Below, piece after piece: positions 40,986 to 64,000 of a DNA stretch of 64,000 nucleotides. Location: the NCBI GenBank assembly GCA_041749335.1, contig JBGTBM010000010.1:68533-132532 (forward strand), written 5' to 3'. The stretch comes from Patescibacteria group bacterium (GTDB lineage Bacteria; Patescibacteriota; JABMPQ01). Within the stretch, counting starts at the first letter, position 1. Each line of letters begins with the position of its first letter. The position numbers were made by a program, and so were the translations under genes. Below the pieces are notes generated by a model. The model saw only the letters and a list, made by a program, of their open reading frames with translations. It was not told the DNA's origin and did not search any database.

Positions 40986-41076
40986 TTTTTCTATATTTTT
41001 ATTATTTGCTATAATTACTTTACTGATTTATTATAGCTAATTATAGTATATTTATTAATAAATACAATTTAAATTT

Positions 41077-42516
41077 ATGAAGCTTTGGAAAAGAAGAGTT
41101 ATACTTTTTTTATCAATTATTCTATTTTTAGTATTATCTCCGACGATAATTTTATATTCGAGCGGATATCGGCTTGATTTTGATAATTTTACTATTAAAA
41201 AAGTAGGTATGATTATCATTGAATCAAAACCCAAGGATGTCGATGTAATTGTAAATAACAGGTTGAGTGCAAAAAAAACACCTTACAAAATGTCGAATTT
41301 AACTCCGAAAAATTATTCTATTAAGCTAGAAAAAGGCGGTTATCATGCTTGGGGCAAAAATCTTCCAGTGGAGTCTCAATCAGTCACTTGGATTTCAAAT
41401 GTTTTATTGTTTTTGAGTGAGCCAATTAAAGATATTTACTCCCATGAAGATAATATTATCGAATCACAGATATCCCCTGATCAAAAATATTATGCTTATA
41501 TTATCGTAAATGAAGATAATAATTATATTCTAAGACTGCTTGATTTAAAAACGCGAGAAAATATTAATATCTTCCTTTTGGATTATTTTATTAATAATAA
41601 CTTAGTTGATTTTATTCCGGAATCGATTTCCAATATTCTTTGGTCGCATGACAGTAAAAATATTATTATTACATTGTCAGGCCAAAATAATAGAAAATAT
41701 ATGATTGTAGATATTAATAATATCAACAAGTCGTATCTGCTGGAAAAAGATAATTTATCTAAGATAACCTGGGACAATAATGATTCTAAATTTATTTATT
41801 ATTTAAAAAATAATAATCTGGAAAAATTAAACATTACAAACCAAACCATTAATAACATTATTGCCCAAAATGTCGACCAATATGATTTAGTCGCAAATTC
41901 CATTTTATATACCAAGACCATAAAAAATAAAAATGAAATTATTTCCAGTATTTATAAAATTAATAAAAACAGCTCGGAGGAAATTGAAGATAAACTAAAA
42001 AACATTGGTATTATAAATGAAGAGATTGATAAAATAAAAGCTCAAAAAGAAGACAGTTATTTATTGTTAACAAATACCCATAATCTTTATTTATCATTAA
42101 ACGAGAATATCCTAAAAATTGGCAGTGATATTATTGGTTTTAAGTGGTCAAGTAACAAACATTTTTTATTCTATAATGATACAAATATTTGGCATTATAA
42201 AATTGAAGGCGATAAAAACACCTATCATCCGCAATATTTGTTAAATGAACCGGTGTTAGCCCTAGAATCATTAAATAAAATTGACCTCGTGGATTGGCAC
42301 CCCGACAATGAACATATTCTTTATAGCAGCGAGGGCTCAATTAATATATTGGAACTAGATAGGCGCGATGTTATTAATAATTATCAAATACTCAATAATA
42401 TTATTAATATTTCCGATAATAATGTGGCTTTTAATGATGAAGGCGACAAGTTATTTCATATGGAACTGATCGATAATAAACATTGCTTAGTTGAAGCAAC
42501 CCTATATCATAAATAA
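41077..42516 (+). CDS. PEGA-domain / beta-propeller-like extracytoplasmic protein, N-terminally anchored (hypothetical).
   Basis: TM helix, a PEGA-like segment (KPKDVDVIVNNRL...GGYHAWGKN), then a long Asn-rich repeat region. Confidence 0.5.
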   Translation: MKLWKRRVILFLSIILFLVLSPTIILYSSGYRLDFDNFTIKKVGMIIIESKPKDVDVIVNNRLSAKKTPYKMSNLTPKNYSIKLEKGGYHAWGKNLPVESQSVTWISNVLLFLSEPIKDIYSHEDNIIESQISPDQKYYAYIIVNEDNNYILRLLDLKTRENINIFLLDYFINNNLVDFIPESISNILWSHDSKNIIITLSGQNNRKYMIVDINNINKSYLLEKDNLSKITWDNNDSKFIYYLKNNNLEKLNITNQTINNIIAQNVDQYDLVANSILYTKTIKNKNEIISSIYKINKNSSEEIEDKLKNIGIINEEIDKIKAQKEDSYLLLTNTHNLYLSLNENILKIGSDIIGFKWSSNKHFLFYNDTNIWHYKIEGDKNTYHPQYLLNEPVLALESLNKIDLVDWHPDNEHILYSSEGSINILELDRRDVINNYQILNNIINISDNNVAFNDEGDKLFHMELIDNKHCLVEATLYHK

Positions 42517-53956: not shown

Positions 53957-55468
53957 CTATTTTTTCAATTTTATCACTTGTCCGGGATCAATATTATTGT
54001 TCTCTGTTTTTTTAGTATTTTTATTTATAGTTTTTTTATCGCTTAACAACTCGGCGAAAGCCTTTTTGAACGGTTGGTGATTTTCTTCTTTTTTAGGCTT
54101 GGCGGGCGCATTTAATTTATCTATTTTTGATTTATTTGTTTTCCCGCTATAAGAATTATATGAAGATTCTTTATTTTTTGGCTTTTCTTCCATTATACCG
54201 CTCCATTTGGCTATTTTTTCTTCTACAATTGATCTTTCGGTAGAATATCTTTCACGCGAAACGCTTATTATTTTTTCTTTATGTCCCTCTTCAGCCCAAG
54301 TCGGAGCCAAGGTTATGGCAGAAAAAGGTTGACTAGCAACGCCATCAATCATCAATTTTAAATATATATGAAACTTAGTTAAATTAACTAAATCATTTTC
54401 TTCAAAAATCGGCTCATATTCTTTGGCAATAAATTCAGAATCCGCAGCACCTATTCTAAAATTTATTATAGTTCCAACATTTCCAAATACAGCAAATTTA
54501 ACTTTTTCTGATAACTGATCAATATATTGATGCGCCATTATTAAATCTAAACGATACTTTCTAGCTTCAGATAAAATATCGGCAAAGCTATCGGTAGCAA
54601 AATTTTGAAACTCATCAACGTATAAATAAAAATCTGATCGCTTTTCTTCACTAATATCAACTCGGCTCATTGCCGCTAATTGTAACTTAGTAATCATCAT
54701 CGCGCCAAAAAGTGCCGCCGCATCCTCACCAACTTTTCCCTTGGCAAGATTTAGCAGCAATATTTTTTTATTATCCATAATTTCTCGCATATTTAGAGTA
54801 GATTTTGTCTGACCAACAATATTTCTAATTAGCGAAATAGATAGAAACTGGCCAACCTTATTTTGGATCGGAGCAATTGCTTCGGCCATAAATCTATCGG
54901 GATATTTTGAAAATTCTTCAACCCAAAATTGTTTTACTACCGGATCAACAATGCTAACAATCACTTTTTTTCTATATTCTTTATCAACAAGCATTCTCAT
55001 GGTACCCAATAACGTACTGCCCGGATAATCAAGCAGCGCTAAAATTGTATTTCTTAAAACATATTCTAACCTTGGTCCCCAGGAATCAGCCCAAATCTTT
55101 TTAAATACTCCAACTAATCCCGAAGCTACTAAATGTTTATATTGGGGATCGACATTTTCCATCACATTAAATGCAATCGGATAATCCACATCTCCAGGAT
55201 CAAAATATATAACATCGTTAATTCTTTCAGAAGGAACATAATTTAGCATTTTTTCCGCAAATTCTCCATGTGGATCGACCACGCACAAACCATTGCCATT
55301 TTTAATATCAGAAATAACCATATTTTCAAGCAAGGTAGTTTTACCCATACCCGTTTTCCCAATAATATAAACATGCCTTCTTCTATCATCAGTTTTAATT
55401 CCAAAAACCGTCTCCTTGCCGCGAAAGTCGGTTTTACCTAATAAGCTAATTTGTTCTTCAGATTTCAT
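53957..55468 (-). CDS. TraD/TraG/VirD4-family coupling-protein-like P-loop ATPase.
   Basis: Walker A IIGKTGMGKTT, Walker B LYVDEFQNF, a TrwB-like core, and a Lys-rich C-terminal tail. Confidence 0.65.
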   Translation of the reverse strand: MKSEEQISLLGKTDFRGKETVFGIKTDDRRRHVYIIGKTGMGKTTLLENMVISDIKNGNGLCVVDPHGEFAEKMLNYVPSERINDVIYFDPGDVDYPIAFNVMENVDPQYKHLVASGLVGVFKKIWADSWGPRLEYVLRNTILALLDYPGSTLLGTMRMLVDKEYRKKVIVSIVDPVVKQFWVEEFSKYPDRFMAEAIAPIQNKVGQFLSISLIRNIVGQTKSTLNMREIMDNKKILLLNLAKGKVGEDAAALFGAMMITKLQLAAMSRVDISEEKRSDFYLYVDEFQNFATDSFADILSEARKYRLDLIMAHQYIDQLSEKVKFAVFGNVGTIINFRIGAADSEFIAKEYEPIFEENDLVNLTKFHIYLKLMIDGVASQPFSAITLAPTWAEEGHKEKIISVSRERYSTERSIVEEKIAKWSGIMEEKPKNKESSYNSYSGKTNKSKIDKLNAPAKPKKEENHQPFKKAFAELLSDKKTINKNTKKTENNNIDPGQVIKLKK

Positions 55469-55472
55469 AATT

Positions 55473-56738
55473 TTATTCTATGGGTAGATCGGTTGGGGGC
55501 ATACTCTTTCTTGATTCAGCTCTAACCAAAGAAGGAGCTTTGACTGAAATATAAGGAAAATGATAAATAGTTGCCAGTTCTTCGACATTAAAAACAAATG
55601 ATTTAGAACCACCGGTATCTCTGGCTTTATATCTTCTTACAATATTGTTTTGTAATCTCGGTGCTAGCTGTTTTGCAAAATATGGCCTTAGTGTCCAATA
55701 CTTTTTATTAGGCACCAAGCTATTTAAATTTTGCGACCCAAACGCCTTAAAGGCTCCAAATAAAGGATTTATTCCCTTCTTACTTGAAAATGCGACCTTT
55801 TTACCAATATACATCACTCTTAATTTTACCTTAAAGCCAATTTTAGCAACATTGCCTTCGATTGCCTCTACAATTTCTCTTTGTCCCGGAGTTAAATATT
55901 GCATTTCATTTATCATGTCATCCCTTTTAGTGCTTTTTTGATCTGCCGCGCCTGCAGGTTCGATAAGTCCAACTACCATATGGATTCCTTGAATAAGCAT
56001 TGGAGTTTTAGTCTTTTCTTTTTTGCCAATCAACTTATTAACAATTTTTTCTCCGCCCTTTTTCCATTCATCGCCAACGGGCTCTAAAATCATTTGTACC
56101 CACATTTGCTCATCAACCGACATTGTGCTCATAACCTCTAACAAATTAGATAGCGGATCCATAAACTCTTTTTCAATATCGTCTGTAAAAAATTTATAAG
56201 TTTTTATCGGATATGGATCCGGCTTACTCAAAGTTAGCTCCGCTCCAAATACATCATATGTATCATTTGGATACTCTTTGGGAATAAATTGTGCGTAATC
56301 CTCTACTTCCATTATTTCCGCTTCTGGATATTGAGAGTAAATATTTGCCTCGACAAAATCCCTAAAATAATCCGGAGTTCTGATAATAAATCTGATATTG
56401 CCGCCGATACTTACTAATTCAAAAGTAAAAGTATCCTGTGTTTTACCTTTAAACCATTTATCAACGAAAGTTGGTCGGGATTTTATCGCATGCAATCCGG
56501 AAAATATTAATTCCATATATTTAGGGTTCTTTTCATTAGTGTCGGGTACTGTAACAGCCAAGAATATATGATTAATAGAGCTGGAATATTTTTCTCTCTT
56601 TTTTAACAACCAAAGGTAATAGATAACCGCGGCTAAAACAAAAAAAAGAATCCACCATGAATATCTAAAAACAATAGAAAAATAAGCCCAATATTCCTTT
56701 AAATATTCAAAAATTTCAAATTTTGGAAATTCAATCAT
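55473..56738 (-). CDS. Membrane-anchored protein of unknown function, translationally coupled to the TraD-like ATPase.
   Basis: 421 aa with two N-terminal TM helices. Its stop overlaps the ATPase start region. Confidence 0.55.
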   Translation of the reverse strand: MIEFPKFEIFEYLKEYWAYFSIVFRYSWWILFFVLAAVIYYLWLLKKREKYSSSINHIFLAVTVPDTNEKNPKYMELIFSGLHAIKSRPTFVDKWFKGKTQDTFTFELVSIGGNIRFIIRTPDYFRDFVEANIYSQYPEAEIMEVEDYAQFIPKEYPNDTYDVFGAELTLSKPDPYPIKTYKFFTDDIEKEFMDPLSNLLEVMSTMSVDEQMWVQMILEPVGDEWKKGGEKIVNKLIGKKEKTKTPMLIQGIHMVVGLIEPAGAADQKSTKRDDMINEMQYLTPGQREIVEAIEGNVAKIGFKVKLRVMYIGKKVAFSSKKGINPLFGAFKAFGSQNLNSLVPNKKYWTLRPYFAKQLAPRLQNNIVRRYKARDTGGSKSFVFNVEELATIYHFPYISVKAPSLVRAESRKSMPPTDLPIE

Positions 56739-60439: not shown

Positions 60440-60621
60440 TTTTTTATTATTAATTATTTCAATAGATTTAAGTATAATCTAACACTTGATAAATAGCAAA
60501 CCACTCACCTAATTTGATTCTTAAAATTTTTATCTTATTTTTTTAAAAACCCCGCCTTTTACGAGGTTAATAATTATTTATGATGATTGCTAAATAACGT
60601 TGGAACTTGTTTTAAGTTTAT

Positions 60622-61158
60622 TTACTCTTTAAAATTATATTCTTCACTTACCTTCTTCCAAAAACCAACCGGCCCTACCCAAGAATTTATAAATGTTGTT
60701 AATATTGGATTAAATACTTTTTTACCACTTATCTCTTCTTTTTTAAATTTTAATTTTTCACATAAAATGGATAATATTCCCAAACTATCAAATGGGTTTG
60801 CTCCTGCTTTAATATCGTCATTAAATATTTTTTCATAAACTAAAATTTCTTTTACTAATAAATCTTTATCAAAGTCTAATATTTTCGAAAAAGTATCAAT
60901 ACTCATGTTTTTTAATTCATCTGCTAGCACTTCTTTAAATATATTTTTTAAAACTTGCAATTCTAAAAATAATCTAAAGATAGTAAAATTTATAATTTCT
61001 TCTTCATTAATTATTTCGGGCATACTTTCAGACAATATATTTTTAAATTTTTTACTCTTTAATATTGAAAACATTTTATTAAAAGACTCTTTACTTCCGT
61101 CAATAATAATTCTTGTTATAGAATCAACTGCATTAATTTTTGATATTCTTTTTTTCAT
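60622..61158 (-). CDS. Hypothetical protein (AT-rich island).
   Basis: 178-aa ORF at about 25 % GC. Confidence 0.5.
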   Translation of the reverse strand: MKKRISKINAVDSITRIIIDGSKESFNKMFSILKSKKFKNILSESMPEIINEEEIINFTIFRLFLELQVLKNIFKEVLADELKNMSIDTFSKILDFDKDLLVKEILVYEKIFNDDIKAGANPFDSLGILSILCEKLKFKKEEISGKKVFNPILTTFINSWVGPVGFWKKVSEEYNFKE

Positions 61159-61424
61159 TATATTTAAAATTATTTAGAATAAAATTTATTTAACATTTCT
61201 ATTATATCAAAAAAAGATTATTTTTGCTCTTTTTGTGTAAATATTAAAGAAGGTAGAGCCTATTTTTTATTTATAACTAACCCACCATACAACTCACTAT
61301 TTGTTTTTAAAACATAACCTGCAAACATATTTTCAAATAAAAAATGGGACGTACCCCATACCACTCCCTTCACTCTGGTACGGGGCGAGGTGTGAATTAT
61401 TATTGTTCAATTATTTTAATATCA

Positions 61425-61455
61425 TAAAACGGAGCTTTAATGCTCCGTTTTCTGT
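61425..61455 (+). terminator. Hairpin terminator candidate inside a 375-bp intergenic region.
   Basis: AACGGAGC-tttaat-GCTCCGTT followed by TTCT. The T-run is weak. Confidence 0.3.
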
Positions 61456-61533
61456 GGGGATTACTAGAGGAAGTTAGAACCTGTTTTGTGTAATTTTCTC
61501 AGCTACCCTACCACTCGACTCACTATTGTTTTT

Positions 61534-62028
61534 TCACATTCTATTATCCCACAATTTACCTTTTTTTCTTATAAATTCTCCATCTTTTCTAGTATAGAAT
61601 GACTCTTGAATAAATGATAAAAATTCATTGAGCTTAATTTCATTTGTCATATATCTTATATCTGGGTAAATGACAGTAAAATGAGGTTTATGCGGTTTAT
61701 CATTTTCTAATTTATCATAATAAAATCTGAATTTGTCCGGATCGCTTTCCTTATTATCATCGGTGCAAATTGTAATCAACTTATAATGACCCGAAATAAA
61801 CCTATAAGTATATGATTTAACTTGATTATCTTCAAACAGTTCCGCAATTGTTATATAACCTACTTTATCCTTTAGAATAATACCTTCATCTTCTGCTTTT
61901 ATATTAACGTGATAAGGGCAAAAAAATTTATTGTTCATCCGCTTTACCGGAATACTATTAATATTTTCTATAAATAAATGATTAAAATCACTTAAAATCC
62001 CTTTGATTTGAGCTTCTCTATTCGCCAT
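61534..62028 (-). CDS. Hypothetical protein (third gene of a 3-gene overlapping operon).
   Basis: 164-aa ORF. Its start overlaps the upstream gene by 11 nt. Confidence 0.5.
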   Translation of the reverse strand: MANREAQIKGILSDFNHLFIENINSIPVKRMNNKFFCPYHVNIKAEDEGIILKDKVGYITIAELFEDNQVKSYTYRFISGHYKLITICTDDNKESDPDKFRFYYDKLENDKPHKPHFTVIYPDIRYMTNEIKLNEFLSFIQESFYTRKDGEFIRKKGKLWDNRM

Positions 62029-62374
62029 ATTTATCTTTTCGAACTACATTTCTATACAAATTCATCCAAGTTATTATTTCAGGTGATGAAGAAACTTTTC
62101 CCTGCATCCATTTTTTATAATATGTATTAGATTGAGCTCCATATTTATCTTCAAAATCTTTTATTTTTTGAAATGCTAAATTATTTGAAATAATATCTTT
62201 ATAATAATAAAGAATATCATCAATTTTAGATTGATCTTCAAAATCAAAAGATGACCCATGATAATTATTTTTATTATCATTCTTATATAAGAATTCTTTT
62301 GGTTTTATATTAGAGAAGGAATTTTTATCATCTCCAAGGTTAAAATCATTAAGATATTGGGTTATTACTTCCAT
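62018..62374 (-). CDS. Hypothetical protein (second gene of the operon).
   Basis: 118-aa ORF. Confidence 0.5.
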   Translation of the reverse strand: MEVITQYLNDFNLGDDKNSFSNIKPKEFLYKNDNKNNYHGSSFDFEDQSKIDDILYYYKDIISNNLAFQKIKDFEDKYGAQSNTYYKKWMQGKVSSSPEIITWMNLYRNVVRKDKYGE

Positions 62375-62382
62375 AAAATATA

Positions 62383-63042
62383 TTAAATTAAATTATCTAA
62401 ATTATTCGCTAGGTTGTTATAAATTTCATCAAACTCTTTACGTAAATCTGCGATTTTTGGCAACTTTTTATTTGAAAAATGAGCATTCAAATCAACTGAG
62501 ATTGATTTTGTTGGTTCTAAGTTTTGATTGTTGCGAGGCTTTATTTTTAAATCATATCTTATATTATCCTCTTTATATATAATATCTATCCCTGCACTAA
62601 CAACATCCAATTCTTTAATTTTGTCTTTATTAATAAATTCTTTTGCAATAAACATACCACTATTTTTAGTTCCATTCTTTAGATCAAAAATCGAAAGAAT
62701 ATTAAAACCATAATCTTTAACATCATTTTCAGTAATTAAATTATTTATTTTATTTACTAAACTATAAAAATTACTTTTATCTCTTGACAAATAAGAAGAT
62801 ATACTATTATCAGCAATAATAATCCGATTTTGTTCCTTTATTATATTTATTGATACTTGATTATTTGGATCAAAAACTAATAGTAATTCTGGAAACTGAG
62901 TTACCACCGGTTTGCTATCACCATAAATCCCCTCTAAAATATCTTTGATACCATTTATATTTATATTATAAATATCAATATTTTGTTTGGGTATGATAAC
63001 CGCATTAATTTGTACAGTTTGTTGATTTTGAATTTTAGCCAT
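62383..63042 (-). CDS. Hypothetical protein (first gene of the operon).
   Basis: 219-aa ORF. Confidence 0.5.
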   Translation of the reverse strand: MAKIQNQQTVQINAVIIPKQNIDIYNININGIKDILEGIYGDSKPVVTQFPELLLVFDPNNQVSINIIKEQNRIIIADNSISSYLSRDKSNFYSLVNKINNLITENDVKDYGFNILSIFDLKNGTKNSGMFIAKEFINKDKIKELDVVSAGIDIIYKEDNIRYDLKIKPRNNQNLEPTKSISVDLNAHFSNKKLPKIADLRKEFDEIYNNLANNLDNLI

Positions 63043-63451
63043 ATTTATTAATTATTCATTTTATTAATTATACCAATATATAAATTATAAATATATATCA
63101 TTAAAACCTACTCTTTTATTACAAATTTGTAAATATTTTATTAAAAAACCGGATGCCTGATAGTCGTAAGGAGGTAACGACATCAGAACACCCAGTTTTT
63201 TTATTATAACAAATCGATAGTTAAAACAAATTCTTTACCTTTTTATTTAAGTCATGAAATTTATTGTTTAATATTGTTTAAAACACTTCATTGGTCTTGC
63301 TTAACAATACCTTTTCCGACAGCTTTAAATAATTCTACTAGCTTGCTACCTTTTTCTCTGGCTTCCTCTTGGGATATATCCTTGTTGAAATTCTTTTTGT
63401 AAAGCTTCCTAAATTCCTCTATTTGGTTTTCTGTAAGTAGTGTCATAAAAT

Positions 63452-63616
63452 CACTTTTTAATTTCACTCGTCTTTTTTTTTATTTCTATTGTCTATTTGC
63501 AATAGTAAATCAAAAAATCCTACCAAATTATCACGAGCTTCTCGAGCTTCATCTTCAGATAATTTCTTTCCGCTCAGTTCGCTATAAAATTCTATATCAA
63601 TATCATCATCTACCAT
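63452..63616 (-). CDS. Small ORF (54 aa) with an (S)EDEAREARDNLVGFFDLL motif, followed by an out-of-frame paralogous fragment.
   Basis: Manual translation MVDDDIDIEFYSELSGKKLSEDEAREARDNLVGFFDLLLQIDNRNKKKTSEIKK. A second copy of the motif (EEAREKGSKLVELF) follows in another frame with no start codon. Confidence 0.25.
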
Positions 63617-63624
63617 TATATATT

Positions 63625-64000
63625 TTATTTTAATTTTTTTAAATTATCTGAGATAATATCTTTTATTTTTCCAAAATTATAACCATTTCTAACATAATAT
63701 AATTTCATTTCATTTTTATCACATTTTGCTTTCTTTGTTTTATCTCTTAGCTGTTGTTTTTTATAATATTTTTCTCCACCAAAATAATCTACCGGCTCAA
63801 AATGTTGTTTCCCTTGATATTCAAATGCAATATTTAAAGCAGGAATACAAACATCCAAATGTTGCCTGCCCAGCCATTTAGGTGAATAATGATTAACTAC
63901 ATTATATTTATCACCAACATATTTTTTTATTTTATAATATAATTCTGTCTCAGATATCCAACCTTCTCCTACCTTAGGAAGATCTAAATCTTCTCTGAGC
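63625..64000 (-). CDS. Partial PD-(D/E)xK / DUF559-like nuclease-domain protein. The N-terminus is beyond the window end.
   Basis: The ORF continues in frame to position 64000 (...LREDLDLPKVGEGWISETELYYKIKKYVGDKYNVVNHYSPKWLGRQHLDVCIPALNIAFEYQGKQHFEP...). The D...EYQGKQH pattern resembles the DUF559/Vsr-like endonuclease core. Confidence 0.4.
   Translation of the reverse strand, partial: LREDLDLPKVGEGWISETELYYKIKKYVGDKYNVVNHYSPKWLGRQHLDVCIPALNIAFEYQGKQHFEPVDYFGGEKYYKKQQLRDKTKKAKCDKNEMKLYYVRNGYNFGKIKDIISDNLKKLK

Follow-up and report, generated by a model that had tools for sequence, protein, structure and literature searches.

Three small adjoining genes, designated A, B and C, form a compact cassette near the end of a 64,000-nt stretch of DNA from a Patescibacteria group bacterium (assembly GCA_041749335.1, contig JBGTBM010000010.1, positions 68,533 to 132,532 of the forward strand). 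This whole stretch is referred to as the window, and positions are counted from its first nucleotide. The cassette is an autonomous, conserved and co-evolving operon, and it is associated with restriction-modification and defence genes. On the basis of sequences and structure models, A-B-C is tentatively read as an autonomous three-gene module of the toxin-antitoxin (TA)-like, abortive-infection type that belongs to the defence islands of candidate phyla radiation (CPR) bacteria.

The cassette as a conserved unit

All three genes are on the minus strand, with gene A (219 amino acids; 62383-63042) first, gene B (118 amino acids; 62018-62374) in the middle and gene C (164 amino acids; 61534-62028) last. 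The first 11 nt of C are shared with the end of B, and 8 nt separate A from B. An earlier annotation made without database searches, here called the sequence-only reading, had listed open reading frames (ORFs) of 178, 164, 118 and 219 amino acids in this region. All four are found in place on the minus strand, and the tight coupling of three co-directional genes that it proposed agrees with the distances above. In the related loci outside the window A-B-C is contiguous and in the same order in 13 of 13 cases, counting every contig long enough to judge, with A-B gaps of 1-23 nt and B-C junctions ranging from a 38-nt overlap to an 8-nt gap. One of these contigs has a frameshift in A (L039:5781-6450), where the gene is divided into two overlapping ORFs by either pseudogene formation or an assembly error; B and C are intact.

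The matrices of pairwise identity for A, B and C correlate with one another (Mantel p <= 0.0014), and ratios of nonsynonymous to synonymous substitution (dN/dS) of 0.07-0.16 for A, B and C indicate purifying selection. Mean identity is 51% for A compared with 39-41% for B and C.

The families of A and C are tiny and patchily distributed in the protein libraries searched. A profile search of 5.8 billion proteins gave 16 clusters of A at 90% identity, all of about 220 amino acids and 43-52% identical to the A protein of the window. For C, a full HMMER search of 1.84 billion proteins recovered 28 representatives at 50% identity, where a word-index search had recovered C alone. The word-index search with B rendered one homologue with 47% identity, and on its contig B is flanked by genes of 220 and 161 amino acids, with identities of 52% to A and 54% to C. 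Taxon names are attached to two of the A clusters, Candidatus Magasanikbacteria and Candidatus Parcubacteria, both of which are CPR bacteria. No relatives of A, C or the C-terminus of B were found in plasmids and phages by tblastn, and the A family had no match among the IMG/VR viral contigs or the GTDB genomes.

Signals in the flanking DNA delimit the cassette. A terminator-type hairpin with A-run, stem and U-run, of the bidirectional type, is located at 63143-63201 (minus strand) between two small upstream ORFs and gene A; its folding energy is -28.9 kcal/mol (z = -6.7) and none of 200 shuffles was equally stable. A second terminator hairpin (61424-61454, minus strand; -15.9 kcal/mol, z = -6.3) follows about 80 nt past the stop codon of C, and the cassette is thus insulated by hairpins on both sides. 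A candidate extended -10 element, TGGTATAAT, can be read off the minus strand at 63067-63075, 25 nt before the ATG of gene A. It was not listed by a consensus promoter scan because it has no good -35 element. The guanine-cytosine (GC) content of the cassette is lower than that of its flanks at all 11 loci measured, by 2 to 14 points.

Gene order, spacing, co-evolution, purifying selection, flanking hairpins and the candidate promoter together show that A-B-C is an autonomous operon. The suggestion of a novel accessory system in the sequence-only reading is strengthened by a cassette that is conserved and co-inherited in variable neighbourhoods, and no description of it was found in the literature searched.

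The spacer downstream of C had been described as having repeats and hairpins, which is correct. It covers 375 bp (61159-61533) and contains, apart from the strong hairpin, a 32-nt imperfect direct repeat in two copies with 78% identity (61277-61308 and 61503-61534, plus strand) that enclose the spacer hairpins. There is no further copy of this repeat in the window. Two contigs of the Logan assemblies, L001 and L026, both from run SRR28170473, stop 14 nt apart inside the spacer, at 61344 and 61358, beside the G+C-rich hairpin and between the two repeat copies. This break may represent a branch in the assembly graph caused by strain variation at the cassette border.

Gene neighbourhoods of the related loci

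Gene contexts can be compared for 11 loci: the window and the contigs L002, L004, L006, L008, L010, L012, L013, L029, L033 and L039. Restriction-modification genes adjoin the cassette or are found within two or three genes of it in seven of the 11 contexts. In an eighth, L039, there is a restriction enzyme only, the methyl-directed DpnI (PADLOC 8e-112), which is encoded close downstream and accompanied by RadC. The cassette of the window is found beside a C5 methyltransferase, a SacI-like restriction enzyme and a nuclease. The neighbours in L002 are a type III methyltransferase, a ResIII helicase, EMARD_N, a DUF559 nuclease, two serine recombinases and a tyrosine integrase, and L004 has a type III restriction-modification system and a PIF1 helicase. 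An EcoRI-type methyltransferase, GmrSD/HNH and DUF559 are found in L006, a C5 methyltransferase in L029, and an N6/N4 methyltransferase fused to a LexA-type repressor in L033. L008 encodes a 668-amino-acid HATPase_c protein and a serine recombinase, and L010 encodes SLFN_AlbA_2, a SocA/Panacea TA system and an integrase. L012 and L013 have no clear defence neighbours.

The loci have almost nothing in common outside the cassette, and known defence genes recur beside it in unrelated contexts. The type of restriction-modification system varies from locus to locus, which argues for residence in defence islands generally and not for partnership with a single enzyme. The earlier suggestion to scan the locus with PADLOC was followed, and no known system was matched.

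A ClpP-like serine protease of the SDH type (PF01972) is encoded directly upstream of A in L004, L006/L007, L029, L033 and L039. Between the protease and A, the majority of these loci encode a protein of about 90 amino acids that contains an NSFNK motif and has a hydrophobic anchor at its C-terminus. The region of the protease and the small protein extends over L004:6674-7990, L006:1213-2235, L029:1646-3104, L033:6706-7996 and L039:4452-5775. An incomplete gene at the same position in L005 and L013 may be the same protease. The window has neither the SDH protease gene nor the gene for the tail-anchored protein. Protease, tail-anchored protein and A-B-C possibly make up a five-gene version of the system.

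The fusion gene in L033 (L033:5157-6536, minus strand) is divergent from the protease and A-B-C cluster. It encodes a 459-amino-acid protein that combines a LexA DNA-binding domain, an S24 self-cleaving peptidase and an N6/N4 DNA methyltransferase, and it may be a methylase under SOS control.

Protein B and its TumA-like domain

TumE-TumA, a TA superfamily validated by experiment, has translation as its target (Durairaj et al. 2023, PMC10584680). Residues 70-109 of B match the NCBIfam model for TumA at model positions 21-60 of 76 (E = 1e-4, 22 bits). All nine B proteins scanned match TumA in this way, through the C-terminal 40 or so residues, with a best E-value of 4e-7. The N-terminal 50-60 residues of B are extra compared with TumA and are poorly conserved. 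In a scan of A-B-C against PADLOC-DB v2, B alone matches, and it does so over the same 40 residues, to the candidate model PDC-M44A (E = 9.3e-6, and 9.2e-7 for a second member scanned). No publication on PDC-M44 was found in the literature searched, and a sequence-profile search of PDB with B gave no match. The view in the sequence-only reading that the proteins of this region lack recognisable motifs therefore stands for Pfam and PHROGs but not for B, which is recognised by the NCBIfam TumA and PADLOC PDC-M44A models.

Protein C

In the AlphaFold2 model of C (predicted local distance difference test, pLDDT, 93), a helix at the N-terminus is followed by a series of strands, and a second helix and a short hairpin form the C-terminal part. 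Residues G57, Y73, Y75 and H116 are invariant in the family, and E63, H103 and R125 are present in at least 90% of its members. The conserved block has the form F-x-F-H-Y-D-K...P-H-x-P-H...R-Y...F-L-x-F. Foldseek found no neighbour of the model in PDB or BFVD, the PDB sequence-profile search was also empty, and no match to Pfam, NCBIfam or PHROGs was found; the C protein of the window has no Pfam TumE match at E <= 1.

The position of the gene recalls the TumE toxins, the DUF6516 proteins, whose genes are mostly found downstream of the partner gene (PMC10584680). B is directly upstream of C in 13 of 13 loci, which places C in the position of a TumE-like toxin, though in a tricistronic arrangement. 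The TumE fold is described as two alpha-helices packed on a seven-stranded antiparallel sheet (PMC10584680), and the C model, with two main helices and a multi-stranded sheet, may fit this verbal description.

Sequence comparisons with TumE were based on 11 plasmid DUF6516 genes, which represent one plasmid-type subfamily only and of which 10 match Pfam TumE at E <= 0.001. They were retrieved by tblastn with a consensus sequence that served only as a probe. A hidden Markov model of the C family matches a true TumE with a per-sequence p of 4e-4, and the HMMER alignment pairs FHYDK..PHxPH..RY..FLxF of C with RYDN..DHKH..RF..LLADF of TumE. Low-stringency hhalign also sets the YD, H-x-H and L..F motifs of the two in register. 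Four strongly conserved identities are aligned between C and TumE, a number equalled or exceeded in 5 of 120 shuffles.

One of 29 members of the C family weakly matches DUF2290 (Pfam E = 1e-3, PADLOC E = 6e-4). DUF2290 is a component of the helicase-DUF2290 defence system. Among the plasmid sequences retrieved, an IncR Enterobacter plasmid (L019:809-1871) and a Brevundimonas plasmid (L021:809-1871) encode, in this order, a 105-amino-acid hypothetical protein, a verified TumE and a helix-turn-helix (HTH) protein next to a recombinase gene. The 105-amino-acid protein upstream of DUF6516 was considered as a relative of A or B and was unrelated on comparison.

Protein A

Of the three proteins, A shows the highest conservation, and its AlphaFold2 model (pLDDT 92.7) shows two successive beta-alpha-beta(3-4)-alpha units with a long helix at the end. 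The two halves have no sequence similarity to each other, so an internal sequence repeat was not found, and A has no match in Pfam, NCBIfam, PHROGs, PADLOC or among PDB sequences. The best Foldseek matches in PDB are the rolling-circle initiators RepD/RepDE, AdoMetDC/prozyme and Bet v 1 (E about 1e-4). The template modelling (TM) scores against these structures are only 0.3-0.4 and the root-mean-square deviation (rmsd) is above 10 Å, and the likeness is therefore a resemblance in topology and not membership of these families. Conserved polar residues occupy alternate positions of the first strand (N6, H7, T9, Q11 and N13), which in the model suggests an exposed sheet face for binding of a ligand or nucleic acid.

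An ABC-3C conflict system, made up of an ABC ATPase, a middle component and an effector, was considered for the cassette and rejected, since the MC3 match in one of 16 A proteins (E = 0.013) is at chance level for 16 scans. No ABC ATPase was seen at any cassette locus.

The low-GC island around the cassette

The window has an overall GC content of 0.337, and the four kilobases from 60 to 64 kb have values of 0.293, 0.270, 0.235 and 0.264. This confirms the fall in GC content from about 60.5 kb to the window end that had been noted earlier. Logan contig L001, which overlaps the window by 2657 identical nt, lengthens the locus by 6.5 kb; positions past the window end are given as 70485 minus the position on L001. 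The proteins of the locus are found with exact sequence on Logan contigs and on an NCBI contig of 300.5 kb. The low-GC block, with 22-28% GC, runs from 60501 to about 67000 and both of its flanks are at 30-36% GC, so that the sequence-only reading had one end of an island of about 6.5 kb in view. Low GC is not confined to this region. A second dip, to 25.4%, is found at 41001-42000, where GC and AT skew are reversed compared with the neighbouring stretches.

Beyond the cassette, the block contains an orphan gene for a 178-amino-acid protein (60622-61158, minus strand), which has no counterpart on the contig of the B homologue and lies outside the conserved cassette. Upstream of the cassette there are two small ORFs (63288-63616, minus strand) of 59 or 52 and of 50 amino acids. 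Neither the 178-amino-acid protein nor the small ORFs matched anything in scans of Pfam, NCBIfam, PHROGs and PADLOC. The small ORFs had been interpreted as an ORF with a frame-shifted duplicate and as degraded fragments. This is unsupported because the 59- and 50-amino-acid ORFs are not significantly alike (BLASTP E = 1.2) and cannot be demonstrated to be duplicates.

The partial PD-(D/E)xK-like gene recognised earlier at the window edge is the 3' part of a gene for a 358-amino-acid nuclease (63625-64000 and on to 64701, minus strand; L001:5784-6860). The N-terminus of this protein is TerB_N/SngA-like (PADLOC SngA 9e-9). Its C-terminus is PD-(D/E)xK-like with a D...E-x-Q/K-type motif, LDVCIP...FEYQGKQH, and it matches PHROG families that include homing/HNH endonucleases (1e-26 to 3e-10). 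PDB sequence-profile searches gave no match for the nuclease or for the 178-amino-acid protein. Possibly the TerB_N-type nuclease acts in defence by itself. Its gene is followed further out, beyond the window end, by a SacI-like restriction enzyme of 375 amino acids (64822-65949; Pfam RE_SacI 20.1 bits, cut-off 19.3) and a C5 DNA methyltransferase (65960-66952; Pfam 9e-100). The low-GC block thus holds a type II restriction-modification pair and a nuclease, which upholds the earlier classification as a defence or addiction island.

Integrated mobile DNA, the other origin suggested at that time, found no support. No integrase is encoded among the genes of the 60.5-67 kb block, and the proposed check for att-like repeats beyond the window end gave no non-trivial direct repeat of at least 14 nt linking the two block borders. 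An integrative mobile element or prophage was consequently rejected, given that there is also no tRNA nearby (the sole tRNA of the window is at 15.4 kb) and that no relatives were found in the viral contigs, phages and plasmids searched. An Rfam scan of 60.4-64 kb gave no credible RNA.

The left flank of the block is of housekeeping type, with a MiaB-like radical-SAM enzyme, a sigma factor, MnmA and an alanyl-tRNA-synthetase-like gene. The search for relatives of this flank with the MiaB-like protein rendered only a Clostridia gene at 29% identity, or nothing. A near-identical Logan contig comes from the sample of the window itself. Past the right border, at normal GC, there are a secreted SNase-Excalibur nuclease and membrane proteins. 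At 53957-56738 a DUF8128 protein of 421 amino acids is followed by a DUF87/TrwB_AAD_bind ATPase of 503 amino acids, as annotated from the gene calls of L026. The pair is surrounded by housekeeping genes and resembles a type IV coupling protein.

Proposed mechanism and alternative explanations

If the cassette is a TA-like module, C would be the growth-arresting effector, probably a hydrolase that acts on nucleic acid through conserved His, Asp, Glu and Arg residues on the face of its beta-sheet. B would be the antitoxin and would neutralise C through the C-terminal TumA-like domain. A, with its pseudo-twofold alpha/beta model, would be an obligatory third partner that senses the trigger or acts on the B-C complex as regulator or stabiliser, possibly by way of the extra N-terminal segment of B. 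The SDH protease and the tail-anchored protein, which are found in about half of the loci, may provide the trigger by degrading B. In the window, the cassette could be a second line of defence, or the addiction module of the island, or both at once.

A bolder version of the same idea is doubtful as a whole. It describes an anti-phage abortive-infection system that is new to the literature and so far confined to CPR-type contigs, half of them extended by the SDH protease and tail-anchored protein. The system would contain two folds without solved or described relatives. When an infection is sensed, a dedicated third protein, optionally with a dedicated protease, would free the TumA-type antitoxin from a toxin of a new type.

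Several results weigh against reading the cassette as a TA-like module with B and C as antitoxin and toxin. None of the 29 members of the C family passes the Pfam threshold for TumE (PF20126, gathering 23.4 bits), and the lone sub-threshold match is at E = 0.07. The hhalign score between the C family and the 11 TumE sequences, 10.9, equals the shuffle mean and was reached in 88 of 200 column shuffles. Homology between C and TumE is thus not demonstrated, and the aligned motifs make the link suggestive only. At position 103, where at least 90% of the family has His, the C protein of the window has Tyr. B scores far below the TumA equivalog cut-off (NF045776, 100 bits) with about 40 residues matched; the two proteins therefore have a domain in common, but B does not count as a TumA equivalog. 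Neither A nor C is matched by a PADLOC system model. The toxin of an ordinary TA pair is as a rule better conserved than its partner; here the highest conservation is that of A, and A may therefore be the real effector. Antitoxin domains are known to move from one toxin family to another, and C could for this reason just as well be a toxin of another kind.

The high conservation of A also fits an anti-phage system without TA logic, with A as sensor or effector, B as adaptor and C as accessory enzyme, and in some lineages a protease and a membrane-anchored partner as additions. The alternating conserved polar residues on the first strand of A could bind nucleic acid, its top Foldseek matches are pseudo-symmetric binders of nucleic acids or small ligands, and both the residence in defence islands and the five-gene version with SDH protease and small tail-anchored protein are in keeping with such a system. 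We nevertheless consider it unlikely. The structural matches of A are those with the low TM-scores and large rmsd given above, the sole recognisable feature of B is an antitoxin-type domain, and the domains common in defence proteins (ATPase, helicase, TIR, nuclease and others) are missing from both A and C. It is harder still to regard the cassette as a pure addiction module, stabilising restriction-modification or nuclease genes or the island by post-segregational killing and giving no direct phage defence. This fits with restriction-modification neighbours of many types and not of one, with the recombinases or integrases near the cassette in L002, L008 and L010, and with verified TumE genes being common on plasmids beside recombinases and transposases. 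The A and C families are, however, absent from the plasmid, phage and viral contigs searched, the island of the window has neither integrase nor border repeats, and simple addiction needs no third, highly conserved gene. Improbable is therefore our estimate for this explanation.

The least credible of the explanations is an ordinary lineage-specific cellular operon, with regulatory, envelope or metabolic function, in an AT-rich and poorly annotated CPR region. Unannotated genes are abundant in CPR genomes, the whole window is AT-rich with the other dip to 25% GC at 41-42 kb, and L012 and L013 have no obvious defence neighbours. The extremely small and patchy families of A and C in libraries of billions of proteins, and the different neighbours at every locus, already argue against it, as do the cassette GC below the local background in all contexts measured and the antitoxin-type domain in B.

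To our knowledge, the genomes of CPR bacteria are very small and for the most part without CRISPR-Cas, so their resistance to phages is poorly known. Being compact, always co-inherited and placed next to restriction-modification genes, A-B-C makes a concrete candidate for a lineage-specific system of immunity or addiction. If the TA-like reading is true, TumE-TumA would be extended by the pairing of a TumA-type domain with a toxin that is very divergent or of another family, and by a three-gene architecture that is at times linked to a protease. The models of A and C are confident and have no convincing structural neighbour, which makes the two proteins good targets for work on structure and function.

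Comparison with known systems

Restriction-modification defence islands resemble the surroundings of the cassette, with a C5 methyltransferase, a SacI-like enzyme and a TerB_N-type nuclease beside it in the window and type II, III and IV and methyl-directed restriction genes elsewhere. Unlike such systems, A-B-C itself has no recognisable methylase, nuclease or ATPase domain. Component A of PDC-M44 in PADLOC is matched by B over the same 40 residues (E = 9e-6 to 9e-7), but A and C match no other component of PDC-M44 and no other PADLOC model.

In tripartite TA systems (toxin-antitoxin-chaperone, TAC; paaR-paaA-parE) a third protein controls the toxin-antitoxin pair, and the antitoxin is extended compared with its two-gene relatives. 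A-B-C is similar in having three tightly linked small genes and an extension on B. Membership of TAC, where the third gene encodes a SecB-like chaperone and follows the pair, was considered and rejected: A is upstream of the pair, it has no SecB or HTH signature in Pfam or NCBIfam, and its predicted architecture is different.

TumE-TumA (Durairaj et al. 2023, PMC10584680) shares with the cassette a small upstream partner gene that overlaps the gene for a downstream protein of about 160 amino acids, and B residues 70-109 match TumA positions 21-60 in nine of nine members. The model of C has N- and C-terminal helices around an antiparallel sheet and may in this resemble TumE as described, and the Y, YD(K/N), H-x-(P)H and L..F motifs are in the same order. 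On the other hand, C is under the Pfam TumE threshold with a profile-profile similarity at chance and is about 40-70 residues longer than the TumE proteins retrieved here, and B has 50-60 extra N-terminal residues and is far below the TumA equivalog cut-off. The cassette also differs in the obligatory 220-amino-acid gene A ahead of the B-C pair and in its distribution, being known from metagenomic contigs and two CPR-named assemblies only. The antitoxin-type domain and the TA-like layout of A-B-C are thus familiar. What sets the cassette apart as a variant is that it has an obligatory third gene, two proteins without matches, a distribution of CPR type and, optionally, a protease module.

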